From NCBI GenBank assembly GCA_944384495.1, contig CALWTP010000063.1, positions 1 to 41,212 of the forward strand: a stretch of DNA of 41,212 nucleotides, in the 5' to 3' direction. This document shows, piece by piece, positions 7,617-29,502 of the stretch. Numbering within the stretch: the first letter of the stretch is position 1; each line of letters opens with the position of its first letter. Origin of the DNA: an uncultured Clostridia bacterium. Lineage in GTDB: Bacteria > Bacillota > Clostridia > Christensenellales > UBA1242. A program made the translations under genes and the position numbers. The notes under the pieces were generated by a model. That model was not told the origin of the DNA and ran no database searches. It worked only from the letters and a program-made list of their open reading frames with translations.

Positions 7617-8405
7617 ATGAAAAAGCTTGATAAAGTTGTCGTTATCACTGGAATTTCGGGCGGGATAGGCCAAAGGACTGCAGAATATCTATATCAGAGA
7701 GGTTGCAGAATTTATGGTATTATGAGAAGCGATTTTCAAAATGAAAAATACTTTTGTTATAAAGCGGATGTAAATGACCATAAGAGGATTGAGGAAATTT
7801 TTGAGGATATTTACCAAAAAGAAAAACGCATAGATGTGCTAATCAACAATGCTGGGTTTGGAATTGCAGGAGCAATCGAAAATGCACCAAAAGACAAAGT
7901 CTATCAGATTATCGACACAAATCTCGCATCTGCAATAACCGTAACGCAAGCATCGATAAAATACTTAAAAGAAAGCAGGGGAAATATTATCACAATATCA
8001 TCACTTGGCGGGGTGATCCCGTTGCCATATCAAGCTTGCTATAGTGCAACAAAGGCGGGAATAGAAATTTTTTCAAGAGCACTCGATGGCGAGGTAAAAC
8101 GATATGGAATTAAAACCACGGTAATATTGCCAGGTGATTTAAAAACGGGGTTTACAAATTCAAGGCAAAAGTATCTTGATCGAGGTAAATCGGTTTATGA
8201 AGAGCGGTCGATAAGAAAAATGGAAAATTTTGAGAACAAAGGCAAAGATCCAATTGTTGTCAGCAAAGCTATTTTCAAAATAATAAAACAAAAACGACCG
8301 CCACTACGAAAGACAATAGGCTTCGGAAATAAAATTTTGGTGTTTGCCACTCGGATTTTGCCAACAAGACTTATCAATTATTTAGTAAGAAACATTTATT
8401 GTTAG
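7617..8405 (+). CDS. Classical short-chain dehydrogenase/reductase (262 aa); candidate 3-keto-sphinganine-type reductase
   Basis: TGISGGIG cofactor motif (TGxxxGxG), NNAG, and a Ser...YSATK catalytic triad. The SDR family call is confident. The substrate call is inferred from operon context only. Confidence 0.85.
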   Translation: MKKLDKVVVITGISGGIGQRTAEYLYQRGCRIYGIMRSDFQNEKYFCYKADVNDHKRIEEIFEDIYQKEKRIDVLINNAGFGIAGAIENAPKDKVYQIIDTNLASAITVTQASIKYLKESRGNIITISSLGGVIPLPYQACYSATKAGIEIFSRALDGEVKRYGIKTTVILPGDLKTGFTNSRQKYLDRGKSVYEERSIRKMENFENKGKDPIVVSKAIFKIIKQKRPPLRKTIGFGNKILVFATRILPTRLINYLVRNIYC

Positions 8406-8415
8406 GAGGAACAAA

Positions 8416-9597
8416 ATGGATCTATTTGAAAAAACAAAAGGCGAGCATATCTATGATATGGCAAAAGAGAAGGGAATCTATCCATATTTCCACAAACTTA
8501 CCACAGGCCAGGATGTTGTTGTGGATATCGAGGGCAAAAACACGATTATGATAGGCTCCAACAACTATCTGGGATTGACATCACATCAAGAGGTTAAAGA
8601 GGCAGCAAAAAAGGCTATAGACAAGTATGGCTCGGGATGCTCAGGCTCAAGGTTTTTAAACGGCACACTTGACCTTCATGTGGAGCTTGAAAATGAGCTT
8701 GCACGATTTTTAAAGAAGGACAAGGTTATTACATTTAGCACGGGCTTTCAGGCAAATCTTGGAGTTATAAGTGCAATAGCAGGGCGAGGAGATTTTATCC
8801 TGTGCGACAAAGAAAATCATGCCAGCATCTATGATGGATGTCGTTTGAGCTATGCAAAGCTGTTGAGATATGAGCATAGTGACATGGAAGACCTTGAGAG
8901 AAAATTGAAGCTAGTGCCAGAGGATAATGGCATTTTAATCGTGACTGATGGTGTTTTCTCGATGGGAGGAGACATCTGCAAATTGCCAGAAATAGTAAAG
9001 CTTGCCAAAAAATATGGAGCAAGAATTATGGTAGATGATGCTCATGCGCTTGGCGTACTTGGCAAACATGGCAGAGGTACAGCGGAGTATTTTGGACTTG
9101 AGGATGATGTTGACATATATATGGGAACCTTTTCAAAATCACTGGCATCACTTGGTGGTTATATTGCGTCAAGTGCAAGGGTTATTGATTATATCACCCA
9201 CACCTCAAGGCCATATATTTTCAGTGCGAGCATGACCCCGGCATCAGTTGCAAGTGCTTTGACTGCGCTAAGGATCTTAGAACGTGAGCCTGAACGAATG
9301 GAAGCATTAAAAAACATTTCTTCATATATGCGTGAAGGACTCAAAAAGATGGGAATACAGATTATTGAGAGTCAAACTCCAATAATTCCAATCTATACCT
9401 ATGATGATGAAAAAGCTTTTATGGCCTGCAAGCTCTTACTTGATAGAGGTGTCTATGTAAATCCTGTTGTTTCTCCAGCAACTCCGGTTGGAAAGGCGCT
9501 CATTCGAACAAGTTATACAGCGACTCACACCAAAGAGCAAATGGACACAGCTATGGCAAAAATTCAAGAAGTAATGAAAATATTGGAAATCATATAG
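8416..9597 (+). CDS. PLP-dependent alpha-oxoamine synthase, serine palmitoyltransferase-like (393 aa)
   Basis: SNNYLGL, NHASIYDG, DDAHALG and the PLP-lysine motif GTFSKSLASLGG. From memory the FSKS-type motif resembles bacterial Spt, whereas E. coli Kbl has GTLGKALGG. AGGAGGA Shine-Dalgarno site lies 10 nt after the SDR stop. Family membership is confident; the acyl and amino-acid substrates are inference. Confidence 0.85.
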   Translation: MDLFEKTKGEHIYDMAKEKGIYPYFHKLTTGQDVVVDIEGKNTIMIGSNNYLGLTSHQEVKEAAKKAIDKYGSGCSGSRFLNGTLDLHVELENELARFLKKDKVITFSTGFQANLGVISAIAGRGDFILCDKENHASIYDGCRLSYAKLLRYEHSDMEDLERKLKLVPEDNGILIVTDGVFSMGGDICKLPEIVKLAKKYGARIMVDDAHALGVLGKHGRGTAEYFGLEDDVDIYMGTFSKSLASLGGYIASSARVIDYITHTSRPYIFSASMTPASVASALTALRILEREPERMEALKNISSYMREGLKKMGIQIIESQTPIIPIYTYDDEKAFMACKLLLDRGVYVNPVVSPATPVGKALIRTSYTATHTKEQMDTAMAKIQEVMKILEII

Positions 9598-9645: not shown

Positions 9646-9721
9646 TGGTCGAGGTGATGGGATTTGAACCCATGGCCTTACGGTCCCGAACCGTACGCGC
9701 TAGCCCCTGCGCTACACCTCG
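9646..9721 (-). tRNA. tRNA-Pro (anticodon CGG), 76 nt with encoded CCA
   Basis: Hand-folded cloverleaf. Acceptor CGAGGUG/CACCUCG, D stem GCGC/GCGC, anticodon stem UACGG/CCGUA with loop UUCGGGA (CGG, G37). T arm AUGGG-UUCAAAU-CCCAU, discriminator A, then CCA. Confidence 0.9.
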
Positions 9722-11631: not shown

Positions 11632-12000
11632 ATGCTTTATCCGTCGCTTAATCAACCACTTGTGATAGCCTGTACATTTTGTATAGGTATTTTGTCAGGT
11701 TTAATTTTTGATGGAATGGGATTGCTTGCAAAAATATGTAAAAAAATAAAATTTGCAAATATTTTTTTTGATTTTTTAGCTGTTATTTTTTCATTTTTTT
11801 TATTAATTTTTGTAAATTTAAAGATAAATTATGGGCAATTTAGATTTTACGTTTTAATTGTTTTTTTTACAGCTTTTTTCTTGGAAAGAGCACTATCGAA
11901 TTTATTGACAAAAAAGCTTTTTTATACAATTGTAAATAAGAAAATAAAAGAAAAAAGCATGGAAAAGAAATCAAAAAAAAATGATAAAAAAATTGTTTAA
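11632..12000 (+). CDS. yabQ: YabQ-like spore cortex biosynthesis membrane protein
   Basis: A 122-aa multi-pass membrane protein immediately after yabP, with a G..SGLIFD motif near the N-terminus and a lysine-rich tail. The call rests largely on synteny. Confidence 0.6.
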   Translation: MLYPSLNQPLVIACTFCIGILSGLIFDGMGLLAKICKKIKFANIFFDFLAVIFSFFLLIFVNLKINYGQFRFYVLIVFFTAFFLERALSNLLTKKLFYTIVNKKIKEKSMEKKSKKNDKKIV

Positions 12001-12091: not shown

Positions 12092-12289
12092 ATGGAAAAT
12101 AAAAAAAATAAAAAAAGATGGCTGGACATTGTTTTGATTGTGGGAATATGCGTGCTCATTGCTTTTGTGGTGGTGACAAGCATTGTCATCAACAACAAGC
12201 GAAAAGACCTTGATAATCTGGAACAGCAGATTGAACAGATGGAAAACTCGTCACAAGAGCAAGAAAATTTAGCGGAGATATCTTTATAA
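12092..12289 (+). CDS. Small bitopic coiled-coil protein, DivIC/FtsB-like by position
   Basis: 65 aa: basic N-terminus, one TM helix, then a Q/E-rich heptad-like tail. It occupies the divIC position of the B. subtilis yabP-yabQ-divIC order. Confidence 0.45.
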   Translation: MENKKNKKRWLDIVLIVGICVLIAFVVVTSIVINNKRKDLDNLEQQIEQMENSSQEQENLAEISL

Positions 12290-12321: not shown

Positions 12322-12349
12322 TTGATAAGTATTTGAAGTAAACTATAAT
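12322..12349 (+). promoter_or_regulatory. Candidate sigma-A promoter for the giant gene
   Basis: TTGATA (12322-12327), a 16-nt spacer, then TATAAT (12344-12349). AGGAAGAGG Shine-Dalgarno site lies 5 nt before ATG 12473. Confidence 0.45.
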
Positions 12350-12472: not shown

Positions 12473-15400
12473 ATGAAGGGAAAAATCTTAACCATATTGG
12501 CGCTAGTTGTACTTTCTTTAGTAGCAATGACAGCCTGTTCGGGAAGGCCAAGCAAGAGTGGCGAATTTAAAAGTGATACATATGTTCTCTCTATTGGAGA
12601 CAGCATAGATCTTTATAATGAAATTACGATGAAAAATGGCGAGAAGAGTGATGTCGCCATCTCTTTATCCAATGGCAATCTGTCTTTATCCAGCGATAAC
12701 ACCTTTGAAGCGGTGAAGAGCGGACAGACAATTGCTTTTGCAAATTACAATGGTCAAAGCTTTGCGCAGTGTAAAATAATAATTCGCTATAAATTTTCCG
12801 CTCCTTCCAATATATCAGTGGACGAAAATGGAAACATCACTTGGAATCGCTCGTTCGCGATGATAGAAGGGCAGGAAGTCTTTGCCACCGATTATACTCT
12901 TTCAATTGCCAATGTGACAGGTTTAGAGCAAATTGATTATGATTCAATTATATTTGAAGAGATTGAGGTTGGCGAAAGCTATCAAATTTCGCAACCGGGA
13001 TCTTATTGTGTTAAGCTTATGGCAAATGCTATTGAAAATGACAACATAGACAGCTCACAACAAAGCAAAATGGTTGTTTTGAATTATAAGGTGATGGGAA
13101 GAGTTGAAAATTTAAATATTTTGCCATCAAGCTTTAGCGGTAATCAAAGCTCCACGATTTCTTGGGATGAAAAAGAAAACGCAATATACAACATCTATGC
13201 CGAGGGATTTTTGATTGAGGAAAATTTAGAAGGCAATTCTTTTGATTATGATTTTTCATTTTTACAGGCTGGCGAAAGTGTGCCGTTTATGGTTGTGGCC
13301 ATTGACAAGAATGGAATATTTTTAGAAACCAACACATCATTCACTGTGACTGGACTTGAAACTCCAGCGCCTGTATATAGCAATGATACTGAGGGCTTTA
13401 TATCATGGCAAAGTGTTGAAAATGCATCGACATATCTTTTTAATTTTATAAGTTTAGATGATGCAACCGTTCAACAATCTTTTGTTGTTCAGTCGGGGCA
13501 AAATAGCAATCAAGTGTTCGACTCTTTGCCAAGTGGAAATTATAGGCTTTATGCAAGCGCGCAAGCATCAGTAAGTCAGGGTCAGCTATATAGTACGAGT
13601 ACTTTATCTGAAGTGCAATATTATACAAAACTCAATACCCCGCAATCAACCGTCACCTTTGACGGAAAAACATTAAACGTGGACATTGAAGAGGACTCTT
13701 ACAACAAAAATTATAAGGCCACCATCGAGGATAGAGTGTTCTATTTTTCAAGTAACCAGTTTTCGATAGACCTTGATGGTTTCGATTTGGGATTGCACAC
13801 TTTGTCCATCACAGCTTTGCCAAATCCTGGGCAGATGATTATTGTAAATCAGGACCAGACTTCAAACCCGTTAAATTCAAACCCGTTTACTTTTGATTTC
13901 TATATTTTGGATACACTTGGGGAAATTCATCATAGTCTTGACCAAGAGCGCAACATTTCAATATTCTCCCTTTCCACAATAGAAAATGCAAACTATTATA
14001 AGCTGTACATAAACGATATACTTTTTGACATCGAGCCTTATATTGAGAACAACATTGTTTCTTTCACAGTTGAAAATCTGAATCAAATACAACCAAGTCT
14101 TTCTGGATATGAGATAATGGTGACCGCCGGAAATAATATAGATGGAATTGAGTATGCGCCCCTTTCAACTACCACAAAAACGCTTGAAATTTTGCCTTTG
14201 GTTCAAAAAAGCACATCAGAACAAAATGGCTATTATATATGGGACAATCTGGACCAAATTTACCAAGATCGTTTTGAAGAAGAGGTATCGTATTACTATG
14301 AAATTTTCAAGTCAAACAAAGATTATACCAACATCGAAGAGCCAAGTGTGCAATCGGGCTGGACCATGGATGGCAAAAATCAAAACGCGTTAGAGTTTGG
14401 TTATTACATCATCCACATATATGCTCATTCAAATGATACAAATTTATATCTTGACAATACTTTCCACGACAAGGAGAACTTCTTTACCGGCGAATTTTTT
14501 GTGACCGAGCAAATCGCCACACCAACCGCAGTTTTGACTCGAGATGGGGAGTTTAAAGACAATTATTATCTTTCCATATCCACAGTAGAATATGGTGGCG
14601 GATATGTGGTCTATGTTGACGGTGAGTTTGACGGGCAAATAGAGGTGAACAGTGATACGTCAGTTGCGACTTATACTTTTTCAAATACTTTTGAAAAGGT
14701 AAAAAATTATGATATTGCCTTGATTGCAACAAGTGGCTCACGCTTTGACGGGCAACTTCATTTAAACTCAGAAGAGTATCATTTAAATATAGAAAAATTG
14801 CCACAGCCGACCTTCTCCTATCGAGAGGCTTATGACGATTATGGGACAAAAATTAGGGAAGATTTGACGATTGCATCTATTTCAAATCTGCAACAGATAA
14901 AAATCAAAATTGATGATGTGATTGTAAATGCTTCTTCAAACAATACCATAGATTTATACTCATACGACAACGAATTTACTCTTAATCTTCAATACATAGC
15001 AATAGATGGTGGCGACAATCAATTCTATATAAACAGTGATGAGCGGATAGTTGAGTTTTACAGAACCACAGCACCGTCCAACATGCACTTCTCGGACGGA
15101 ATATTAAGCTGGGATGGTCAAGACACAAACATAGCAGACTATTATCTCTCAATCATACTTACAAATCAGCAAAATGGGAATTCATATTATTCATTCTTCC
15201 TAGGGAATACTCTAAATAGTTTTAATCTTCAGACAAAAATCAATCAATTACTTGATACAAATGCTTTATTTGCAACAAGCTATAGAATGGCGGACAGTGT
15301 GGACATCAAGCTCTATGCCTATGCATTACCAGTTGACGATAGTCAGAATGCTTTCTATATTTCATCACAATATGGCACAACACAGGCAAATCAAACTTAT

Positions 15401-18400
15401 CTTTCTTTGACCACTTTGGAAGCTCCAAATCTCAGTTTTAATAGTGCCACGAGGACACTAAGCTGGAATGATGTTGGACAAAATACATATTATGACATCT
15501 ATGTCGATGATGTATGCGTTGTAGAAGGATATAGAGGCAGTGTACTAGCTTCTGAAAATATGATAAGCATAAACCTTGACAGCTTGGGAGATATTGATTG
15601 GCAAAATAGAAAGGAGGTTGTGGTAAAGACTGTAAATCCAAGTTATCTCGACTCGGAAGATTCAAATGTTATATACATAAAACAGTTGGCGCCAATACTA
15701 AATCTCAATATTTCATCCGCCCAAAATCAGTATCAGGCCTCGTTTAATATAACAACTGACATTGAATACATCAGCCATATTCTTTTAAATAATGAAATTG
15801 TCGCAAGTTACAACTCCTCGTCGGCGACAGGGAGTTTTGCCTTAGACGATCCTTCTGTAACCGTATTTGATTTACAGGTGTGTGCAAAAGACAACGGAAA
15901 TTACTACTACTTAGACTCTATCATCACAACTTTTGAACTTCATGATATAAACGAGAGTAATTTTGAATTGACACTTGATGGAGATATGCTTAAATGGACG
16001 CAATTAGACTCGCAAATCGTTGGACAGCCAGAAAACAAAATTAAGTATACACTTGTTATCACCAGTGGTGGAAAATCATATGATATCAGCACTTTTGATC
16101 TTGAATATTCCATTCAAGAGATAGAAGAGGCAATTGGTGAGGTATTGTCAGATACTGTCAATATAAAAGTGGTGGCAAATGTATTAAACTATACTTTCAC
16201 TCAAACCGATGGACAGGCAAGGGGATATTATGGTCAAAAAGAGAGCACCGAGGAGACAACAACCAAATTAAATAAAGTAGCACAAATAACTGTAAATTAT
16301 TTAGTTGATAGCACTCAAAGCCTAGACCTAGACAAATACTTAGAAAGTTACGCACAGCTTTCATGGAACGACGAATGGAGTTCTTATCAAAATGTGAAAT
16401 TTTTAATCAAAGTTTCAAATTCAAATTCTGTCTTGCTCGAAACAACGGTGGGACAAGTTGTCAGTCAGGATTACAGCCTTTCACTGCAAGACGGAATTTA
16501 CACATTAAGGCTAAATAAAGCTTTAATATCGGCAATAAATACCACTGTTGAGATCACTGTTATAGTGCAGGGGAATATAAATTCTCAGCCAACTTCTGTG
16601 ACTATCAGCAGGTTAAATAGCATAGCAGAGGCTTCGGTTGATGGTGATGGCATTTTGACAGTAGACGTAAGTGAAACACAGGATTTAATAGGAGAGGGAA
16701 TCAATTTACTGCTTGAGTTGAGACTGGGACAAGATATAGTAAATTATACCTTCAGTGCTCAACAACAGCTTAATTTAAACAGTGAAGAACTTGGTCTCCT
16801 TTACGGCAAATATGGAGCATATTCGATAAGAATTATTGCAATTGATCAAAATAATCGAGTTTTACCATCTGGTGATGCATATATGATTACGGGGAACAAA
16901 CTTCAAGGTATAGATCAGCTGATAATCAATCAAAGCGGTGATATAGAGATAACTGTGATTGCCGATGATCTTTCTGACATTGTTTTCCATGCGAAAACCA
17001 TGGTAGGAGCAAATGAAGTTATAAAGACTTTCTTACCAGATCAAAATGAAAGTAGCAATGTTTATACGATATCAATGCTGGAAATGCTCGAACTTTTCTT
17101 TAATGATGCTGATGGTACAAGTGGATATTTATTTGAACAAATTTATAACTTTGAAATTACGGTGAGTAAGTCAGACTCGGTGACAGCGGACTGGAAAGAA
17201 ATCTCTTTTGGCTATAAATTTGAATCATTGCAAAATCAAGCAAAGATACTTAGATCAAACGATCTAAGTCGTGATTACATCATAATCGGTGCCCTTGCGG
17301 ATAGCATCTTGAATGATCCAACACGTGCCCTAATCGTCAGCATAAGAGATGGGTCCACCGTGACAAACATTAAATTGAATTCACTTATGTTAATCTTGCT
17401 TCGTGGTTATTGGAAAACAACATCACAGCAAGATAAGGGGACATTTGTAACCACACAAGGTAATGATGGAGCAACATATACTCCTTGTTATGGAGTTTGT
17501 TTAAATGACATTCTCGACGACTACTTGCCAGAGTTTGATTATGGTAATTTTGAAGTTGAAATCTCACGCATTAGCAATGAAAATAGTACCTATTATCAAT
17601 ATAATCAAACTTCGTTTGAAGTAAAACGATTAAATGAAATTATAAATCTTGAGATATATGACAATGTTCTATCTTGGCAGTGGATTAAGCCTGCAGATTT
17701 TATGGCAGACCCAACATTCCAAGCAGTCTCATATTATGTGGTTATTGATCAGATTACTAATGATGGTCTTTCAAATGTAAAAAAGCTTCTTGTAAATTCA
17801 GCATCTCTTGATTTAAGAGGGGTGAATGAAATTATTCCAGGAAACAGATATCAAATTTCTGTGATAGCTTTGCCAAATGCCGATAATCAAACCGTGATAA
17901 GCTCGAAGGCTGTTGTTTATGGCAGTGAAGTCTATAAATATGCCACCCCTATTTCACTTGAGGTAAAGGATGGAAAAATAACATTTAATGCCGAGCAGTT
18001 TGAAACCAGCGCATTTATTCAAGATTTAAAGGATTATTTTGGAGAAGAAGATCCAAGCATTTCAGGTAAAACTGAGCTTTACCAAATCGTAGGTGCAAAA
18101 ACATATTACCAGCCTATAGAATTTCTCGCGAGTACATTGTTAAATCAGCGGGTTGTTTTGAGATTTATTCTGCGCGATGGAAATAGTGATACCAATACAC
18201 ACTATGATGTTGAACTTTTTGCATATCAATTGTTCCCAGATATAGAAATATTAAATGCGGATAACGTCATAGCCACAGATGAATTACATTCGTATTTTGA
18301 TCTTTTAAATTCCTATTTAAATACTAGTCGAATCGACCAATCCGTACCAGAGGGAAGAGAAACTGTAAATTTAATAGAGACGTTGTTATCTTCCTATAGA

Positions 18401-21400
18401 GGCATATCTGGCGATACTGCCCTGTTTGATGATTTTGGTAGGCAAATTCCAACAGGGATATATTCTGTAGCAATTTTTCAAACTGAGCCAAGTGGTTATC
18501 AGACACGAGAATACATAGACTCTCAGCTTTCAAATTCGGTTGTCATGTTTGTCAACCCTGCACCAAGTGTTGAATTGGAGGTAAATAATCGGGATATTGA
18601 TAGTGAAACAAATAAGAATTTTTATGAGGCCGTTGTTAATGTAGGGCAAATTTATGTCTTTGATGAAGCAAGCAGTTCCTATATAAAACGCGATGCAACT
18701 TATTATAAAATGTTAATGCGAACCAATTACCAAGAAGGAATTAAGGATTATAGTAACGATTCGGTATTGGAGTTTGATATACAATATATCAGCGATCAAT
18801 GGCTCATTTATTATAATGATGTACTCGTAGAAAATGTGATTACCACATATTCTAGCAGTAATTTTACAATAAATTTTACATTACTTCGCGACAAATTGCC
18901 GGAAATTTTAGAAGAGTATTTGGAGTGGAGAAATGTGGAGTGGCGAATTGATCTCTATGTATATACTGCTGACAGCTCTTTGATAATAGATGAAACTGAC
19001 GGGAATAATTTGACTTATGGATCACTTAATGGCAAAAGTGCGACCATCAACTTAACTTACCTGGATCTGCTGGAGACAAGTGTAAATTTCACAGATGGAA
19101 GACTTTGCGTAACGATAGACCAGGGAAGAGATAATCAGGACTCATTGCTTGTAAAATATTACTCTTCTGGTAGTGGCGAGTTAAACAAAATATATCAAAT
19201 TACTTCGAGCAATGTCTACATTGACATGGACAATTCTGGATTGTATAGTTATATCATCCTTTCAATAAATGGATCAATTTCTTATAATACAATGCGTGTT
19301 GAAAGCCAGTCATATGCGATAGCGAATAGTTATAAGCTCAACAGTCCACAGCTTTCAATATCGAACAATGATTTGTATGTAAGTATAAATTCTGTGGATC
19401 AGACTTATCATGATGATTTGCACTATTTACTCGCTAATGACCTATCATTACAAAATGGAGATGGCTATTATTACACAAGTGCAAGAGTCGAGAATACCTA
19501 TATTTTAACAAGAATTGGCCAAAATGATGAAAGTGAATTGCGGGCGGGTAGTTTTTATGTATATCTTTTAGGTAACTCTGGAAATTTTGTGTTATCCACC
19601 GATACAACCAGCACAATTCCTGGCGGTGCGGACAATCTCCTTATTTTCCAGAACACTTCAACAAGTTTAACAGCCAAAGGATATCCAATTTTCTCTTCAG
19701 ATACAGCCAGCATTAATGCAAGGATGCTACACAACATAGAAAACGATCCTTTTGTATCCAGTGGTGGAATATCTTGGGAAGTCGATAATGATCAGTTGTT
19801 AGAAGAAGATGCGGTAAACTTATATCAAATTGACATCGAATATTATACCAGATTGCAAGACGAATATGAATTAAGCCGAACGGAAACACTATATACAACT
19901 GCTACAAGTTTAAATCATACATACCTTAATGAAGCTTATCAATATTATAAAGTGTTTGTCACAGCACTAGCAGGCAGAGTGGCAACAAGCACACTTGCAA
20001 ATATAACAACAATTGAAGGAGAAACTTACAATATCCTTCAGCCAAGAAGTTATCAGGATGGCAGTTATGTTTTAAGAGGGTTGAAGCTTTCGGCAACAAA
20101 TGGGTATCTGCAGAGAACAATGACTCCTGTACTATTGACAAATATGACAGGAATCAGTGGAGATACAATTGAGTTCTATATAGATGCCAGAGTTTATAAC
20201 AATGATATAAATAATACAAATAGGACTATAACAGATGAAAATAATGCAAGTGCCAGCGAGAGGATTCTCATTCAGGCCAGATATTTCAGTGGTAGCAGTG
20301 AAGTCTTGGAAAGCCTAGAAGGTTCGTTTATATTTAGTAGTGACACGCATATTGATACCACAGGCCTTATAAAAGTTGAGTTTGTATTAAGTCCGGGACA
20401 ATTAAATATAACAAATATGTTTGATATTGAAATCAGGAACTATATATCAAACGACAGCACTGCTCTTTTGATGTCGAGCGGACTTGTGATAGAGAATGTC
20501 ACAAAACTGCAACCAATGCTCGAACAGTACTATTCTATTGGCATACAGCAAGAAGGACAAGATTATATATCATATATTGATTTTAGCAATTACTTTGAAA
20601 GCGTGATGATTGCATCGAGCAATACGATGTACAGTATAATAGTAAAAATCACCACAACAAGTGGCGAAGAGGTCGAATATCAAATAACGCACCAGGACAA
20701 CAAGCAACTGCCAATATATGAGACCTATCAGTCTATTCAGATCCAAATTGTTGACAATCAGGAGGCAACACTAGTTGGCAGAAGATTGCTGTTAAACAGC
20801 GACATAACGACTTTCAATATTTCACCGACTCAAATAGGCGATGGCGATGGCGCTTGGCTTGAAATTGAGTGGGATGAGGATAATAGCATGTTCCGTTGGA
20901 GCTGGAATGAAGAGTCAGTTTTTGGCAACAATTATCAATACTATTTCAATATCATAATTGACGGGCGACAGACTAGTGGCATAATTGAAAATAGTTATTA
21001 TTTGCCTGTTCAAGGCGGTACAGACAACGAAATCACATCATTCTATATTCAAGCCCGTCAGATCAATCAGGCAGATAATACAATATATCTATTTAGTGAC
21101 AGTGTCAATTATCAGTTTGACAGCGGAAACATAACATATAACCTGTTTGCCGGCGGACAAGGTACTATCTCGTCACCATATCTGATTGCAAATGCCAGTC
21201 AATTTATTCAAATTTACAAGAGGAATTTTGAGGGGCAAGAGGTTTATTATCGTTTGACAAATAATATTGATTTGACTGACGAACTGATATTTATGCAAGC
21301 AGAAGAAGAGGTTGATTTTAGGGAAAAAGTCAAGGTCTTCTATGGAAACATAGATGGTAATGGAAATACAATCACAATTTCCGCTAGCGATTTTCTGGTG

Positions 21401-22333
21401 ATGAGTGAAAGCTATAGCACCACGCTTATGAACTTGCAACTTTCTTTCGATAGGTATTTTGCCTTGTTTGAAACAATATCCTCTAGTGCAAGCATTAAAA
21501 ATTTGAATATCATATTCAATATAGATATCAATACTCTTCAATCAAGCAATATTTTGATAAGCCCGCTTGCAGTATACAATCTTGGCACAATAGAAAATGT
21601 GACAATTACAGGAACAAGCATTTCCAATCTCTCAGGAAGAGGGGACAATGTGGCCTTTGTTGGAGGGATTGTTGCGGCAAATTATGGTGGCACGATCACC
21701 AATTGCCACAATGAAGCCAGCTTCAACTTTAATACCGGGCAGGGGCAAGCATTAAGATTTGCCTACGGCGCTATATCATTATTTAATGTAAATGATGGCC
21801 AAATTCAAGATAGCACCAATAGTGGTACAAAAACTTTGAGAGTTGAGACAAGCAATCAGGTATCATATTTAGCTGGAATAACGATAATAAACTCAGGTAC
21901 CATCTTAAGAAGTGGAAATGATGGAAGTTTTGATGTTGGTGCCATATCGAGTGTGTCCAGCTTTACGACGTATCAAAGCGGTAATGCCATTGTAAGTAGC
22001 GGAGTTTTATCTTTCTGTTATAACAATGGAACCCTAAACAAATCGGCCAATGTGGGCACATTAAATAAGGCAGCTATAGCGCTAACTCTAACTGGAGGCA
22101 CGATAAATTACCTGGCCGACACCCAAGGAAATAGTCTGGTCAACTCGGTAACTGCATACCTTATCATTGACAACGGAGTTAATTATGCTTCTGCAGGGTC
22201 AACGATATCCAACCAGATAAAAGTCACCATCATCCAGCCACTCGAAGAGCCAATAGACGCAGGAGATGGATACTATTTTAGAATAACGTCGGAGAATGGA
22301 GGATTGAGGGTTTCAATTACAACAGAGCCATAA
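12473..22333 (+). CDS. Giant lipoprotein (3286 aa): Ig/FN3-like module array with a C-terminal GLUG-motif module; putative surface adhesin
   Basis: Uninterrupted 9.86-kb ORF. N-terminus MKGKILTILALVVLSLVAMTAC gives a signal peptide plus a lipobox Cys. A Big_2-like first module is followed by at least 10 recurrences of an I-S/T-W strand motif. The C-terminus has SPYLIANASQFIQI... and then GLUG-type repeats (VAFVGGIVAANYGGTITN, YLAGITIINSGTILRSGN). There is no LPXTG or SLH. Confidence 0.9.
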   Translation: MKGKILTILALVVLSLVAMTACSGRPSKSGEFKSDTYVLSIGDSIDLYNEITMKNGEKSDVAISLSNGNLSLSSDNTFEAVKSGQTIAFANYNGQSFAQCKIIIRYKFSAPSNISVDENGNITWNRSFAMIEGQEVFATDYTLSIANVTGLEQIDYDSIIFEEIEVGESYQISQPGSYCVKLMANAIENDNIDSSQQSKMVVLNYKVMGRVENLNILPSSFSGNQSSTISWDEKENAIYNIYAEGFLIEENLEGNSFDYDFSFLQAGESVPFMVVAIDKNGIFLETNTSFTVTGLETPAPVYSNDTEGFISWQSVENASTYLFNFISLDDATVQQSFVVQSGQNSNQVFDSLPSGNYRLYASAQASVSQGQLYSTSTLSEVQYYTKLNTPQSTVTFDGKTLNVDIEEDSYNKNYKATIEDRVFYFSSNQFSIDLDGFDLGLHTLSITALPNPGQMIIVNQDQTSNPLNSNPFTFDFYILDTLGEIHHSLDQERNISIFSLSTIENANYYKLYINDILFDIEPYIENNIVSFTVENLNQIQPSLSGYEIMVTAGNNIDGIEYAPLSTTTKTLEILPLVQKSTSEQNGYYIWDNLDQIYQDRFEEEVSYYYEIFKSNKDYTNIEEPSVQSGWTMDGKNQNALEFGYYIIHIYAHSNDTNLYLDNTFHDKENFFTGEFFVTEQIATPTAVLTRDGEFKDNYYLSISTVEYGGGYVVYVDGEFDGQIEVNSDTSVATYTFSNTFEKVKNYDIALIATSGSRFDGQLHLNSEEYHLNIEKLPQPTFSYREAYDDYGTKIREDLTIASISNLQQIKIKIDDVIVNASSNNTIDLYSYDNEFTLNLQYIAIDGGDNQFYINSDERIVEFYRTTAPSNMHFSDGILSWDGQDTNIADYYLSIILTNQQNGNSYYSFFLGNTLNSFNLQTKINQLLDTNALFATSYRMADSVDIKLYAYALPVDDSQNAFYISSQYGTTQANQTYLSLTTLEAPNLSFNSATRTLSWNDVGQNTYYDIYVDDVCVVEGYRGSVLASENMISINLDSLGDIDWQNRKEVVVKTVNPSYLDSEDSNVIYIKQLAPILNLNISSAQNQYQASFNITTDIEYISHILLNNEIVASYNSSSATGSFALDDPSVTVFDLQVCAKDNGNYYYLDSIITTFELHDINESNFELTLDGDMLKWTQLDSQIVGQPENKIKYTLVITSGGKSYDISTFDLEYSIQEIEEAIGEVLSDTVNIKVVANVLNYTFTQTDGQARGYYGQKESTEETTTKLNKVAQITVNYLVDSTQSLDLDKYLESYAQLSWNDEWSSYQNVKFLIKVSNSNSVLLETTVGQVVSQDYSLSLQDGIYTLRLNKALISAINTTVEITVIVQGNINSQPTSVTISRLNSIAEASVDGDGILTVDVSETQDLIGEGINLLLELRLGQDIVNYTFSAQQQLNLNSEELGLLYGKYGAYSIRIIAIDQNNRVLPSGDAYMITGNKLQGIDQLIINQSGDIEITVIADDLSDIVFHAKTMVGANEVIKTFLPDQNESSNVYTISMLEMLELFFNDADGTSGYLFEQIYNFEITVSKSDSVTADWKEISFGYKFESLQNQAKILRSNDLSRDYIIIGALADSILNDPTRALIVSIRDGSTVTNIKLNSLMLILLRGYWKTTSQQDKGTFVTTQGNDGATYTPCYGVCLNDILDDYLPEFDYGNFEVEISRISNENSTYYQYNQTSFEVKRLNEIINLEIYDNVLSWQWIKPADFMADPTFQAVSYYVVIDQITNDGLSNVKKLLVNSASLDLRGVNEIIPGNRYQISVIALPNADNQTVISSKAVVYGSEVYKYATPISLEVKDGKITFNAEQFETSAFIQDLKDYFGEEDPSISGKTELYQIVGAKTYYQPIEFLASTLLNQRVVLRFILRDGNSDTNTHYDVELFAYQLFPDIEILNADNVIATDELHSYFDLLNSYLNTSRIDQSVPEGRETVNLIETLLSSYRGISGDTALFDDFGRQIPTGIYSVAIFQTEPSGYQTREYIDSQLSNSVVMFVNPAPSVELEVNNRDIDSETNKNFYEAVVNVGQIYVFDEASSSYIKRDATYYKMLMRTNYQEGIKDYSNDSVLEFDIQYISDQWLIYYNDVLVENVITTYSSSNFTINFTLLRDKLPEILEEYLEWRNVEWRIDLYVYTADSSLIIDETDGNNLTYGSLNGKSATINLTYLDLLETSVNFTDGRLCVTIDQGRDNQDSLLVKYYSSGSGELNKIYQITSSNVYIDMDNSGLYSYIILSINGSISYNTMRVESQSYAIANSYKLNSPQLSISNNDLYVSINSVDQTYHDDLHYLLANDLSLQNGDGYYYTSARVENTYILTRIGQNDESELRAGSFYVYLLGNSGNFVLSTDTTSTIPGGADNLLIFQNTSTSLTAKGYPIFSSDTASINARMLHNIENDPFVSSGGISWEVDNDQLLEEDAVNLYQIDIEYYTRLQDEYELSRTETLYTTATSLNHTYLNEAYQYYKVFVTALAGRVATSTLANITTIEGETYNILQPRSYQDGSYVLRGLKLSATNGYLQRTMTPVLLTNMTGISGDTIEFYIDARVYNNDINNTNRTITDENNASASERILIQARYFSGSSEVLESLEGSFIFSSDTHIDTTGLIKVEFVLSPGQLNITNMFDIEIRNYISNDSTALLMSSGLVIENVTKLQPMLEQYYSIGIQQEGQDYISYIDFSNYFESVMIASSNTMYSIIVKITTTSGEEVEYQITHQDNKQLPIYETYQSIQIQIVDNQEATLVGRRLLLNSDITTFNISPTQIGDGDGAWLEIEWDEDNSMFRWSWNEESVFGNNYQYYFNIIIDGRQTSGIIENSYYLPVQGGTDNEITSFYIQARQINQADNTIYLFSDSVNYQFDSGNITYNLFAGGQGTISSPYLIANASQFIQIYKRNFEGQEVYYRLTNNIDLTDELIFMQAEEEVDFREKVKVFYGNIDGNGNTITISASDFLVMSESYSTTLMNLQLSFDRYFALFETISSSASIKNLNIIFNIDINTLQSSNILISPLAVYNLGTIENVTITGTSISNLSGRGDNVAFVGGIVAANYGGTITNCHNEASFNFNTGQGQALRFAYGAISLFNVNDGQIQDSTNSGTKTLRVETSNQVSYLAGITIINSGTILRSGNDGSFDVGAISSVSSFTTYQSGNAIVSSGVLSFCYNNGTLNKSANVGTLNKAAIALTLTGGTINYLADTQGNSLVNSVTAYLIIDNGVNYASAGSTISNQIKVTIIQPLEEPIDAGDGYYFRITSENGGLRVSITTEP

Positions 22334-22355
22334 AGACAAAGATCAGAACTTAAAA

Positions 22356-22389
22356 ATAGCTGTAAAGGACAACATTACAGCTATTTTTT
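22356..22389 (+). terminator. Rho-independent terminator of the giant gene
   Basis: Perfect 10-bp stem ATAGCTGTAA / TTACAGCTAT with a 9-nt loop, followed by T5. Confidence 0.85.
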
Positions 22390-22531: not shown

Positions 22532-23419
22532 ATGAAAAAGATTTTTGCACTTTTTTGTCTATTGTTTTTGCTATTTCCTATAGTGTCCAGCAATAAAATA
22601 AACCTTGCATCCGATGGAGAGACACAAGAGACTGGGGCGGATGATATTATAATGTTATCACTTTCCTCGTCAAGCACACCTGTGCAGAGCATTGCGTTTT
22701 CGATAAGTGGCGAGCTGTGTGACAGGGCAGGATTAAATGCATTACAAAGAAGTGAATTTATTGATTGCTTGCTTCAAAAAATAGATCATTTAAGAACGGA
22801 ATTTTTATTAAGCCTTTCTTTAAAATATCTTCAAAATCCAATTGAGCAGTATAAAATCAACAAGGGAGTAACTCTCACTGCAGTTTCATATAATGACAAT
22901 TCGTCTTTGATTGGCTTTAGCATTATTTATGACAGCCATACCTCTTTCAATTATTACAATTCCTCTTCCTCTTCAAGTAGAGACACACAACGAGGCAACT
23001 ATTTTATTAAAAAATATATATCACAAGGGAAGTTTCCGTTTTCAAGTCAATTTGCAGGTAAAAATACAACCATAGGTCAGCGCTATAAGGAGATATTCCT
23101 ATCAGCAGCAGAAGGCAAGGATTATTATCAAGCAATATCGCAAAATTATAGTCCTAAATTTGTTTATGATTATGCTGTGGTCAACGACAAGTTGAAATCC
23201 AATGCAAACATCATCACAAAGAGTGCGGAGCAGACACATCATATATGGATTGTGGATGAGCAAAATTTGACAAACGCAAACGATATACAATTAAGCCTTA
23301 CAATGGTCAATAGAGGTGCTTGGTATTTGACTGCTTTGATTGTTGTGATGGCGGTCACTATAATCTATATTTTTATAGAATTTAAAATTAGATCAAAATT
23401 AAAAAAAACAAAAAAATAA
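22532..23419 (+). CDS. Hypothetical type-I membrane protein (295 aa): signal peptide plus C-terminal TM anchor
   Basis: N-terminus MKKIFALFCLLFLLFPIVSS. C-terminal helix WYLTALIVVMAVTIIYIFI is followed by KIRSKLKKTKK. No family recognised and the Shine-Dalgarno site is weak. Confidence 0.7.
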   Translation: MKKIFALFCLLFLLFPIVSSNKINLASDGETQETGADDIIMLSLSSSSTPVQSIAFSISGELCDRAGLNALQRSEFIDCLLQKIDHLRTEFLLSLSLKYLQNPIEQYKINKGVTLTAVSYNDNSSLIGFSIIYDSHTSFNYYNSSSSSSRDTQRGNYFIKKYISQGKFPFSSQFAGKNTTIGQRYKEIFLSAAEGKDYYQAISQNYSPKFVYDYAVVNDKLKSNANIITKSAEQTHHIWIVDEQNLTNANDIQLSLTMVNRGAWYLTALIVVMAVTIIYIFIEFKIRSKLKKTKK

Positions 23420-27494: not shown

Positions 27495-28466
27495 ATGGCC
27501 AAAAATAAAGATAATCAATCGAATGGAAATGGCAAAAGATGGGTGACTTTTATTGCAATACTGGTTTTAATTGCAATAATCGTTGTTTTGATTGTCATTT
27601 TTATACCGGCAAATACTTCGGATGCAAAGAGAATACTAAATGATGTATCTTCTTCATCTTATCTTAATGACGAGGACGAAAAATCGGCTTATCAAACTGT
27701 GGGAGAAAAACTGAGTAGTAGCACAAAAAGTTATTATATGACAGAGTATAACGACATCTTACTTCTTTCAGAAGGGATAAGTGATGTATTGCAATTTTAT
27801 GACGACTATCTGGTTTTTGCCAAAGATAACAAGGTTTTATCTTCCAACTACAAGACCATTCGAAACAATTTAAATCGAGTGAAGTCTTCCAAAGAGGATT
27901 TAAACGAATTGGTGGCGACCGTCAACAGCCTTGAAGAGGACAGCGATTCATATGTTAAAAATCTTTGGATTGATTTTAGAGGTGAGTATGTGAATTGGCT
28001 TGAGAGCAATGCGAAGGCCATCTCCGCTTTGAATAATTGCTATCAGGGATGTTTTGACAATACTCTCTCAAACAACTTAGCCTCTTCTACTATTTTAACA
28101 ACTGTTGATAATTATCTGACTTCAATCATAAACAAATTCAATGCCATTATCGACGTTGACAAGAAAAACACTTTGGATGATGTTTATTCATATTCGATTT
28201 CTGGGCAAATTCTTGGGTTCAGCAGATTTGTGAACTCCTATATTGTGGATACCACTGATATAGTTTGCTATAATTTTGAAACGACATATCAAGGGAAATA
28301 CAATTTGATAAATCAGTTCTGCGAAACCTTTGCAGAGAGTGATTTCATTGTGCTTATCGATTCTATGGATGCAGAGGGCAATATCACCAAAACATATGAA
28401 ACGACAGATATGCAGACCACAATTTTTGAGATAACAAAATCGTTTATAGAGGCAAAGGAGGGTTAA
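27495..28466 (+). CDS. Hypothetical membrane-anchored protein (323 aa, N-terminal TM helix, helical ectodomain)
   Basis: Signal-anchor WVTFIAILVLIAIIVVLIVIFI. GGAGGG Shine-Dalgarno site, 9 nt after the dnaB stop. No family recognised. Confidence 0.7.
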   Translation: MAKNKDNQSNGNGKRWVTFIAILVLIAIIVVLIVIFIPANTSDAKRILNDVSSSSYLNDEDEKSAYQTVGEKLSSSTKSYYMTEYNDILLLSEGISDVLQFYDDYLVFAKDNKVLSSNYKTIRNNLNRVKSSKEDLNELVATVNSLEEDSDSYVKNLWIDFRGEYVNWLESNAKAISALNNCYQGCFDNTLSNNLASSTILTTVDNYLTSIINKFNAIIDVDKKNTLDDVYSYSISGQILGFSRFVNSYIVDTTDIVCYNFETTYQGKYNLINQFCETFAESDFIVLIDSMDAEGNITKTYETTDMQTTIFEITKSFIEAKEG

Positions 28467-28467
28467 T

Positions 28468-29502
28468 ATGGCAAAAAGAAAATTTTTATTACCAATTCTT
28501 GCATTAATTTTAATTGTGGGGTCCATATCAATGGTTGCATGCTCGGATAAGACGACCAACACCGATGTATATAACTCTTATCTCCAAACGATTGAAAAAT
28601 TTACAGCAGACACTTCATTTTTGGTTGAAAATAATGCCAATGTATACGGCTCAAAATTCTATTTTGACAATTTCAATTATAAAACTCCAACTGGAGTAAA
28701 AATGGATGATGACGCAAACTATCAAACTTTAAATGCAATTGGACTAAATTTTATAGAAAAACACTATGACATGACAAATGAGATCAAAAAAGCTCGTAGT
28801 CTCAAAAATTCAATAGAGGATCTCAATGAAGCTTATGACCTTGTCAAGGTCGAGTACGATATGTTAATCATGATTGATTCTGATGCGACATACCAAATAT
28901 ACAATGGGTATAGCACAAGATATAAGTGGGGGGCACGTGATTTTATCAACCAGGTTTATGAATGTGCTTTTGATCTTGCTGATGTTATTATAGAAAGTGG
29001 ATATTTAGACGATATAGAGGAACTGGTAGCAGACTATTCTCAACAAGAGGAGCAGGTTGACTTAGAGTTATGGAATAGCAAACTTGAATTTTACATCGAC
29101 TATCAAAATCTTTTAGTCGCAAATGATTTTAGATTGCTTTTACTTGAAAGTGGTCAAGGGCAACAATTTGAAGGCAATAGTGATTATGTGAATATTTCTT
29201 TGCTTTTGCAGTCTTTTGCTCAGACAATTTCAACTGCTTCAAATCAACTTTTAGATGATGCCACGATGGCATACAGAAATATAAATAATATGCTTGCAAG
29301 TGAAAGACAGCTTATGCAGGAAGCTTTAGAGGATTTCAATCTGTACGAATTTATCGAAAATTATGGCGGATCGGTTGATGCATATGAAAAAGAGGAGAGG
29401 TATGCAAAGGCCTACTATAACGAGCTCTCAAAATATTTCAGTGCAGAAAACAACTTTATAAGCCAATATATCAGCTATATCCAAAGCAACATATATTCTT
29501 AA
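28468..29502 (+). CDS. Hypothetical lipoprotein (344 aa, helical)
   Basis: MAKRKFLLPILALILIVGSISMVAC gives a signal peptide plus lipobox. The ATG lies 1 nt after the upstream TAA, which suggests coupling. No family recognised. Confidence 0.7.
   Translation: MAKRKFLLPILALILIVGSISMVACSDKTTNTDVYNSYLQTIEKFTADTSFLVENNANVYGSKFYFDNFNYKTPTGVKMDDDANYQTLNAIGLNFIEKHYDMTNEIKKARSLKNSIEDLNEAYDLVKVEYDMLIMIDSDATYQIYNGYSTRYKWGARDFINQVYECAFDLADVIIESGYLDDIEELVADYSQQEEQVDLELWNSKLEFYIDYQNLLVANDFRLLLLESGQGQQFEGNSDYVNISLLLQSFAQTISTASNQLLDDATMAYRNINNMLASERQLMQEALEDFNLYEFIENYGGSVDAYEKEERYAKAYYNELSKYFSAENNFISQYISYIQSNIYS

Follow-up and report, generated by a model that had tools for sequence, protein, structure and literature searches.

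Known long-reach adhesins share a layout in which one end of the protein is anchored, the middle serves as an extender and a distinct domain sits at the far end. In repeat adhesins of this kind, such as the Gram-negative RTX proteins LapA, SiiE and MpIBP and the Gram-positive SasG/Aap, Ebh and Rib-type 'periscope' proteins, the extender is long and built of beta-sandwich domains, and the proteins are very large, acidic and cysteine-poor. Here, we describe a protein of 3286 amino acids (aa) that resembles them in all of these respects, encoded on a 41,212-nucleotide (nt) stretch of DNA from an uncultured Clostridia bacterium (positions 1-41,212 of contig CALWTP010000063.1 in assembly GCA_944384495.1; the whole stretch is referred to as the window). 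The giant protein also departs from these adhesins. Whereas they are held by LPXTG/sortase attachment, a C-terminal transmembrane (TM) helix or retention in a type I secretion system (T1SS), the giant protein would be held by an N-terminal lipid. Their modules are typically near-identical repeats of variable copy number, whereas those of the giant protein are highly diverged, positionally orthologous and free of DNA repeats, with a total length that is fixed within and between species. Finally, the RTX, G5, Rib and FIVAR domains of long-reach adhesins have no Pfam match in it.

Each part of the giant protein has its own closest counterpart among described systems. Its stalk modules appear to share their fold, a Trp strand motif and a Y-x-V-x-A type strand with the fibronectin type III (FN3) arrays of fibronectin, contactins, cytokine receptors and ROS1/Sevenless; unlike those arrays, the stalk lacks a Pfam fn3 match, has far more modules and belongs to a lipoprotein. 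Its C-terminal head shares the N-cap LFxGGxGTxxxPYxI and GGIxxxNxGxIxNC-type rungs with the GLUG/M26-N beta-helix seen in PDB entry 3n6z and in the S. pneumoniae IgA1 protease (6xja/7uvl). In the IgA1 protease this helix gates an enzyme with metalloprotease domains, whereas in the giant protein it forms the terminal domain and such domains are absent. PfbA of S. pneumoniae is reportedly a surface adhesin whose functional domain, a right-handed beta-helix, binds host ligands; the likeness to our head is that of a Gram-positive surface protein with such a domain, and homology is not part of the comparison. PfbA is small, LPXTG-anchored and without an FN3 stalk, in contrast to the apparently lipid-anchored and FN3-stalked giant protein. 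A lipid anchor, some 25-30 ancient and non-interchangeable FN3 modules, a GLUG tip, a fixed length and a dedicated membrane partner are not usually seen together, and the family that appears to combine them is unannotated. We propose, with slightly better than even confidence, that the gene encodes a lipid-anchored, fixed-length surface fibre presenting a binding head. The gene and its parts are as follows.

12322..12349, + strand: promoter-like TTGATA-16-TATAAT from a consensus scan (11/12 matches), about 124 nt upstream of the start codon
12460-12467, + strand: Shine-Dalgarno-like GGAAGAGG, read directly, 5 nt before the ATG
12473..22333, + strand: giant gene, an open reading frame (ORF) of 9861 nt including the stop codon, 3286 aa, ATG start
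12473..12538, + strand: predicted lipoprotein signal peptide, aa 1-22, with a K-rich N-terminus, a hydrophobic core and A-M-T-A-C ending at Cys22
12557..12784, + strand: tentative Big_2-like N-terminal beta-sandwich, aa 29-104, strands at model residues 7-82 in AlphaFold2 (AF2), predicted local distance difference test (pLDDT) ~75-87
12788..16174, + strand: continuous array of about 12 FN3-like modules, aa 106-1234 (AF2, Foldseek, hhalign)
16175..17542, + strand: family-specific region, aa 1235-1690, with no hhalign repeat signal and nothing credible in a PDB profile search
17543..17962, + strand: FN3-like module or modules, aa 1691-1830, including NVLSWQW (hhalign probability 71-84% to N-terminal modules)
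17963..19069, + strand: second region without a confident model, aa 1831-2199, with no repeat signal and no PDB match; aa 2101-2199 modelled at low pLDDT only
19070..21130, + strand: about 6-7 further beta-sandwich modules, aa 2200-2886 (AF2 of aa 2101-3286, Foldseek, hhalign)
21131..22330, + strand: predicted GLUG-type right-handed beta-helix head, aa 2887-3286 (AF2 pLDDT ~80-95, Foldseek, family profile)
22352..22388, + strand: intrinsic-terminator hairpin, 14-bp stem followed by a U-run, beginning 19 nt after the stop codon

An initial annotation, made from the sequence alone, had described a single 9.86-kb ORF with its own promoter and a terminator with a perfect 10-bp stem, and each of these elements was recovered at 12473-22333 and its flanks. 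The promoter-like site is a consensus match and not proof of function. The 10-bp stem proved to be the core of the 14-bp stem, whose hairpin has a folding energy of -15.7 kcal/mol (z = -7.0; 0/200 shuffles folded equally well); a pattern scan overlooked it because the stem holds fewer than three G-C pairs. The G+C content of the gene matches that of the flanking DNA. As had also been stated, the gene is free of DNA-level repeats: a DNA repeat scan found no tandem repeats inside the ORF, and the only direct repeats were two chance-level pairs of 21-33 nt. Residue counts agree with the composition reported as Asn/Ser/Thr/Tyr/Ile-rich (S 10.3%, I 9.1%, L 8.7%, N 8.7%, T 7.8%, D 6.8%, Y 6.5%), and the protein is strongly acidic (D+E 12.7% versus K+R 5.3%).

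The protein begins with MKGKILTILALVVLSLVAMTAC, which places a lipobox Cys at position 22. We compared this N-terminus by eye with the PROSITE PS51257-type lipobox rule, which we take to be [LIVMFWSTAG]2-[LIVMFYSTAGCQ]-[AGS]-C with the Cys at positions 15-35, a K/R-rich N-terminus and an uncharged hydrophobic core. The two agree, with K2 and K4 at the start, A-M-T-A before C22 and no D/E/R/K at -5 to -10. The Cys at the end of the signal peptide is kept in 62/62 full-length family members, and the signal peptide is the sole hydrophobic segment of the protein. These features fit a bacterial lipoprotein cleaved by signal peptidase II, with lipidation itself inferred from the lipobox. The giant protein contains no LPXTG-like motif and no C-terminal hydrophobic segment, and SLH, choline-binding, CWB2, LysM, cohesin/dockerin and other anchor domains gave no Pfam match; the same wall-binding modules (SLH, CWB2, choline-binding, LysM) and cohesin/dockerin were likewise without a Pfam match in 11 homologues. 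The initial claim that the lipobox Cys is the only visible attachment, with no LPXTG, SLH, choline-binding or C-terminal TM segment, thus withstood motif, hydrophobicity and Pfam scans.

We examined the stalk with AF2 models of aa 23-1165 and aa 2101-3286, which cover roughly two thirds of the giant protein and were both built on an 11-sequence alignment. The N-terminal model is all-beta (mean pLDDT 80.9), with 12 successive sandwich modules and one helical insertion near aa 919-938. Its top Foldseek matches in the PDB are FN3 arrays, including ROS1/Sevenless, contactin-2, gp130 and other cytokine receptors, and fibronectin, with E-values down to 1e-15. The C-terminal model is also all-beta (pLDDT 72.3) and consists of about 7 beta-sandwiches followed by the beta-helix; confidence is low for aa 2101-2200 and 2290-2540, moderate to high for aa 2204-2288 and good for aa 2540-2880, and Foldseek matched the sandwiches to FN3 arrays such as LepR and contactins. 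Tandem seven-strand beta-sandwiches of FN3 topology are therefore present in the modelled two thirds, and the module count by AlphaFold that the initial annotation had suggested comes to 12 in the first model and about 7 in the second. Nineteen modules are modelled, and the total for the stalk is estimated at about 25-30. The Big_2 assignment of the first domain draws on one homologue that matches PF02368 at E 9e-4.

The modules are only distantly related to one another. When 150-aa fragments were compared with the protein itself by BLAST, internal similarity was only marginal (best E 0.004); profile-profile comparison was needed. Using a 62-sequence alignment, hhalign joined the modules of aa 106-1234 into one continuous, mutually homologous series (probability 60-96%) and assigned aa 1691-1830 and aa 2200-2297 to the same repeat family. 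Pfam fn3 (PF00041) gave no match at E <= 1 in the giant protein and none at E <= 0.1 in the 11 homologues. The view that the array is old and much diverged rather than a product of recent expansion accords with the absence of DNA repeats, with a relationship between modules at the profile level only (hhalign up to 96%) and with their positional orthology across 62 homologues.

A Trp-containing strand motif said to recur at least 10 times had first suggested this architecture. All ten quoted copies were located, at aa 120, 227, 308, 876, 994, 1171, 1294, 1731, 2431 and 2806, and the pattern [LIVMF][STKRE]W occurs 13 times in the giant protein versus 2.0 +/- 1.3 times in 2000 shuffles (maximum 8). 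Residues W124, W231, W590, W998, W1175, W1735 and W2435 are invariant in a 6-sequence alignment of closer relatives, and the same set minus W1175 is invariant in all 11 homologues. The motif had been taken for the first strand of FN3/Ig-like modules. AF2 and Foldseek uphold the FN3-like modules in the modelled regions, but the motif falls on the second, Trp-bearing strand of each module, and an array of such modules does not extend with confidence to aa 1235-1690 and 1831-2199, about 825 residues without a confident model.

The first of these two middle regions is specific to the family. Profiles of both retrieved nothing from the PDB apart from an isolated match to the enzyme DXR (E 3e-4, 22.8 bits), which we judged spurious, and a phmmer search with aa 1166-2100 against 1.84 billion representatives detected no relatives outside the giant-protein family. 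The second region carries a conserved block, LFDDFGRxIPxGxY, and the invariant residues G1977, F1985, G1995 and Y1997. A crude Chou-Fasman profile of the alignment did not separate helix from strand, even in modelled regions.

The C-terminal head, like the partner gene with its linkage and the second giant lipoprotein described below, was absent from the initial annotation. Foldseek matched the head to PDB 3n6z, a 'putative IgA1 protease' of Bacteroides ovatus, at E 5e-5, and to the S. pneumoniae IgA1 protease (7uvl, 6xja, 6xjb) at E ~1e-4. A family profile of the last 400 residues recovered 3n6z, with the match running through the cap motif LFxGGxGTxxxPYxI (E 9.4e-7), and also retrieved proteins of 260-710 aa with PF07581 (GLUG) or PF05342 (Peptidase_M26_N). 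The match depended on the profile: a phmmer search of the PDB with the head sequence came back empty. Scored directly against Pfam GLUG, the giant protein also fell below threshold (E 0.56, 11.2 versus 20.5 bits). We interpret these results as remote homology and a shared fold with the GLUG/M26-N beta-helix, as judged from profiles and the model.

We next considered whether the head is likely to be catalytic. No HExxH motif occurs in all 3286 aa and no Peptidase_M26_C match was found. Across 62 sequences, the head residues conserved at >=90% are only Gly, Asn, aromatic or aliphatic residues, Pro and one Arg; D, E, H, K, S and C are absent from this set, a pattern that reads as a structural Asn-ladder helix and not as an active site. 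The matching beta-helix of the S. pneumoniae IgA1 protease acts as a gate without catalytic function, touching the substrate and shifting when substrate binds, and the HExxH site and catalysis lie in other domains (PMC7695701). Given the missing HExxH, the Asn-ladder conservation and this non-catalytic counterpart, we therefore read the head as a probable binding or structural domain and not an enzyme. An M26 IgA1-specific metalloprotease was rejected as an identity for the giant protein, since HExxH and the M26 catalytic middle and C-terminal domains are missing.

We then asked how widely the protein occurs and how its length behaves. A search of 5.8 billion proteins recovered ten clusters beyond the query's own, of 3148-3729 aa and 22-49% identity end to end, none with a Pfam domain or a name. 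The exhaustive phmmer search with aa 1166-2100 gave 49 matches, all at E <= 1e-10, with none between E 1e-10 and 1e-3; the full-length matches span 3032-3533 aa, and the matched part was always at about residues 1140-2080. Clustered at 50% identity, the family amounts to about 50 clusters among 1.84 billion proteins, and every one comes from uncultured gut Clostridia/Firmicutes metagenome-assembled genomes (MAGs). Among GTDB species representatives it occurs in 15 MAGs labelled uncultured Clostridia, Firmicutes, Clostridiales or Eubacteriales; some of these carry UMGS isolate labels and others MGBC labels, which presumably denote human gut and mouse gut, respectively. The G+C content of the family loci is 27-39%. 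Pfam and NCBIfam searches of the giant protein returned nothing except the sub-threshold GLUG match, Pfam searches of 11 homologues returned only scattered weak matches (CE2_N, Big_2, GH85_C), and no description of the family was found in the literature. The outcomes that would have spoken against the initial annotation were a known enzyme or S-layer family or the lack of a beta-sandwich array; no such family was found in Pfam or NCBIfam, and the array is present.

Length is strongly constrained. The 62 distinct full-length sequences measure 3032-3729 aa (median 3252), are collinear end to end and have modules that are positionally orthologous one to one. Each of 27 strain variants, drawn from three species-level clusters, matches its reference in length at 95.8-99.8% identity, with no indels. 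The initial annotation had proposed examining relatives for variation in gene length; within species we observed none, and the whole family stays within 3032-3729 aa. The most divergent members (P0007, P0009 and P0010, 3600-3730 aa; for example L016 8001-18857) carry extra segments of ~100-250 aa just before the beta-helix, such as '...FNGEYYKVSTADIV...', and a shorter C-terminal end after it; the giant protein of the window is without these pre-helix segments.

Several described protein classes were set aside on these grounds. A variable-length periscope or tandem-repeat adhesin does not agree with the absence of tandem or long direct repeats and with 27 strain variants without indels. A sortase-anchored LPXTG protein would require the motif and a C-terminal hydrophobic segment, neither of which is present. 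An S-layer or wall-bound protein was rejected on the absence of Pfam matches to SLH, CWB2, choline-binding or LysM in the giant protein and 11 homologues, and a cellulosomal scaffoldin on the absence of a cohesin/dockerin Pfam match. An RTX/T1SS adhesin was rejected because no RTX/HemolysinCabind match was found, a Sec/signal peptidase II signal is incompatible with that route and the host MAGs are all labelled Clostridia or Firmicutes, where a diderm host would be expected.

The giant gene is followed by a conserved partner.

22532..23419, + strand: partner gene, 295 aa, signal peptide at the N-terminus, TM helix with a Lys-rich tail at the C-terminus

A homologue of the partner lies directly downstream of the giant gene in 14/14 related loci that cover the sequence after it. 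Where the contig allows, the order continues with TypA/BipA, DnaB, two uncharacterised secreted proteins and GltX. Even for P0007, the most distant homologue examined (22% identity), the order is YabP, pseudouridine synthase, giant gene, partner, BipA, DnaB, two unknown genes and GltX, and its partner matches the partner profile at an hhalign probability of 98.8%. The partner has no match in Pfam, NCBIfam, PDB (by profile), PHROGs or PADLOC and no relatives outside its own family of ~270-320 aa. Eight of the 12 aligned partner homologues carry a lipobox Cys (...F[TS]GC...) besides the C-terminal TM helix, whereas the window partner has a plain signal peptide (...LFPIVSSNK) without a lipobox Cys, so that the N-terminal lipid anchor seems to have been lost in this species. 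The gap between giant gene and partner is 29-140 nt in other loci and 198 nt in the window, where it contains the terminator; co-transcription of the two genes is therefore uncertain here. The giant gene and its partner thus form an ancient, vertically inherited cassette in a housekeeping neighbourhood and not an island.

These observations suggest how the proposed surface fibre may work. The precursor would be exported by Sec and processed by signal peptidase II, with Cys22 modified by diacylglycerol; this lipid would sit in the outer leaflet of the cytoplasmic membrane and fix the N-terminus of the protein there. The stalk, a Big_2-like domain followed by ~25-30 FN3-type modules, would be long and acidic. 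An FN3 domain measures about 3.5-4 nm per module; in extended form the stalk may therefore reach roughly 100 nm, enough to cross the wall and any outer layer. The GLUG-type beta-helix of ~400 residues would sit at the distal, C-terminal end and most likely offer, without acting as an enzyme, a surface to which a conserved ligand binds; candidates are glycans, glycoproteins and the surfaces of other cells. The protein would then be a long-reach adhesin or tether. The 295-aa membrane protein is probably a dedicated partner at the membrane-proximal end, where it might take part in assembly, docking or signalling.

Several findings weigh against a surface fibre with a binding head. Strain substitutions are evenly spread, with no hypervariable tip and no indels, which fits a structural role at least equally well, and length is held to 3032-3729 aa over the whole family; many host- or phage-exposed adhesins vary far more. 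The deeply conserved housekeeping setting (TypA, DnaB, GltX) resembles that of a core cell component. About 825 residues, a quarter of the protein, lack a confident model and could conceal another activity. The AF2 alignments hold only 11 sequences and the predicted template modelling scores are low (0.37 and 0.52), so inter-module geometry is not fixed by the models. The initial annotation had regarded the protein as probably an adhesin or a host- or glycan-binding fibre. We infer such a role here; the protein's constant length and low, even within-species variation are atypical of variable adhesins and leave room for a structural function.

The main rival explanation, which we consider unlikely while according it real weight, is accordingly structural: a fixed-length 'ruler' acting as an envelope spacer or tether, with its lipid at the membrane end and its beta-helix bound to an outer layer such as a wall polymer, an S-layer, a sheath or a neighbouring cell. 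Together with the membrane partner, such a protein could establish the architecture of the envelope or keep it in place, by a logic like that of Braun's lipoprotein on a much larger scale. The length range kept over ~50 clusters at 50% identity, the strains without indels and the collinear, one-to-one orthologous modules would all be expected of a ruler. The same holds for conservation that is uniform along the full length with no variable tip, which we read as uniform purifying selection, for core housekeeping synteny kept even at 22% identity and for an obligately linked membrane partner. On the other hand, Pfam detected no known wall-binding module (SLH, CWB2, LysM, SH3b), a stalk of ~100 nm would far exceed the thickness of a Gram-positive wall, and an outer layer at ~100 nm is without support for these organisms.

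A bolder form of this idea, which we regard as rather doubtful, is that the giant lipoprotein and its partner constitute a lineage-defining envelope machine of uncultured low-G+C gut Clostridia. The protein would then be a ~100 nm tether or 'ruler' of ~30 non-interchangeable modules, each with a positional role (for example, docking other surface proteins or a neighbouring cell). Cell architecture, or obligate attachment between cells or to the host, would depend on the protein, which would then be no dispensable adhesin.

It is improbable, in our estimation, that the fibre instead presents an enzyme, with the head or one of the middle regions acting as a pectate-lyase-fold polysaccharide lyase or hydrolase, or as a protease, held away from the cell. 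Many glycan-degrading enzymes are right-handed beta-helices, Foldseek against viral structures returned some 'pectate lyase superfamily' tail proteins at E ~1e-3 to 8e-3, the closest solved relatives are annotated as IgA1 proteases and ~825 residues are without a confident model. Against these points stand the missing HExxH and a head alignment of 62 sequences that conserves neither acidic residues nor His, Lys, Ser or Cys. Furthermore, Pfam and NCBIfam yielded no enzyme family for either the giant protein or its homologues, middle-region profiles find nothing credible in the PDB, and the counterpart beta-helix of the IgA1 protease is non-catalytic (PMC7695701).

The two genes upstream of the giant gene raise a further possibility.

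11632-12000, + strand: YabQ gene, spore cortex protein (PF09578, E 7e-11)
12092-12289, + strand: 65-aa ORF with one TM helix and a coiled coil, FtsL- or DivIC-like by weak NCBIfam matches only

The presence of YabQ and the FtsL/DivIC-like ORF directly upstream, and of YabP near the distant homologue, could point to a surface structure tied to sporulation or division, for example an appendage of the spore or part of the septum, a possibility that we consider very improbable. Elsewhere yabP/yabQ lie on the opposite strand with a pseudouridine synthase gene in between, which indicates synteny and not an operon; moreover, the giant gene has its own promoter-like site and terminator, and its lipobox anchor points to the membrane of the producing cell. 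An origin from a mobile element, phage or defence system, as a tail-fibre-like protein or surface-exclusion factor, is scarcely credible: phage tail proteins often contain FN3 domains and beta-helices, and Foldseek gave generic matches to viral structures, but the giant protein has no PHROGs or PADLOC match, its chromosomal place among housekeeping genes is kept in >15 species and its G+C matches that of the flanking DNA.

If the lipid-anchored protein is the main surface fibre of these Clostridia, it may offer a handle for their antibody- or ligand-based enrichment and culture, and would be a candidate determinant of host, diet or partner specificity. The gene takes up ~10 kb in genomes that appear small, and the ~50 clusters of its family, present in human and mouse gut MAGs, are unnamed, lack a Pfam or NCBIfam model and over most of their length have no solved relative. 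The fibre also lends itself to asking why length is fixed in some bacterial fibres and variable in others. Should it be merely another adhesin, annotation databases would still gain two new families, that of the giant protein and that of its partner.

The wider neighbourhood contains additional envelope genes between dnaB and gltX.

27495-28466, + strand: 323-aa envelope protein with an N-terminal TM helix, no significant Pfam match
28468-29502, + strand: 344-aa lipoprotein with signal ...SISMVACSDK, no significant Pfam match

This pair is kept at the same position in the related loci that reach that far; in L016, the position holds two similar-sized genes without a Pfam match. On the other side of the giant gene, YabQ and the 65-aa ORF recall the Bacillus yabP-yabQ-divIC arrangement; in other species, these genes are found on the strand opposite to the giant gene.

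A second giant lipoprotein is encoded near the right end of the window, such that at least two giant GLUG lipoproteins are encoded within 13 kb.

35482-41212, + strand: second giant lipoprotein ORF, signal MKKFLVGMLSIFVLLGASILAACGSSK, at least 1910 aa, running off the right end of the window

This ORF contains a Pfam-significant GLUG motif (24.6 bits, aa 1247-1272) and has a beta-helix region that lies mid-protein as opposed to terminally and shares 30% identity with the first protein's head (BLASTP E 8e-7). Unlike the first giant gene, it shows signs of recent repeat expansion: a 72-bp tandem repeat at 39006-39164 (2.2 copies, 95% match) duplicates a GLUG rung (GTIRNIIFNGEISSSNGFVANTNS), and a perfect 9-bp x4 repeat at 39517-39552 encodes SPF-SPF-SPF.

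Three further genes lie upstream in the window.

7617-8405 and 8416-9597, + strand: two adjacent genes, one for a short-chain dehydrogenase/reductase (SDR) resembling 3-ketodihydrosphingosine reductase and the other for an alpha-oxoamine synthase resembling serine palmitoyltransferase (NCBIfam)
9649-9721, - strand: tRNA gene (Rfam RF00005, 66.7 bits), the only Rfam match in the window

The adjacent SDR-like and alpha-oxoamine synthase-like genes score below their curated cutoffs (NF049977, 213 bits against a cutoff of 400, and NF047600, 570 bits against a cutoff of 640, respectively). The pair resembles the first two steps of sphingolipid synthesis, which to our knowledge would be unusual in a Clostridia MAG.

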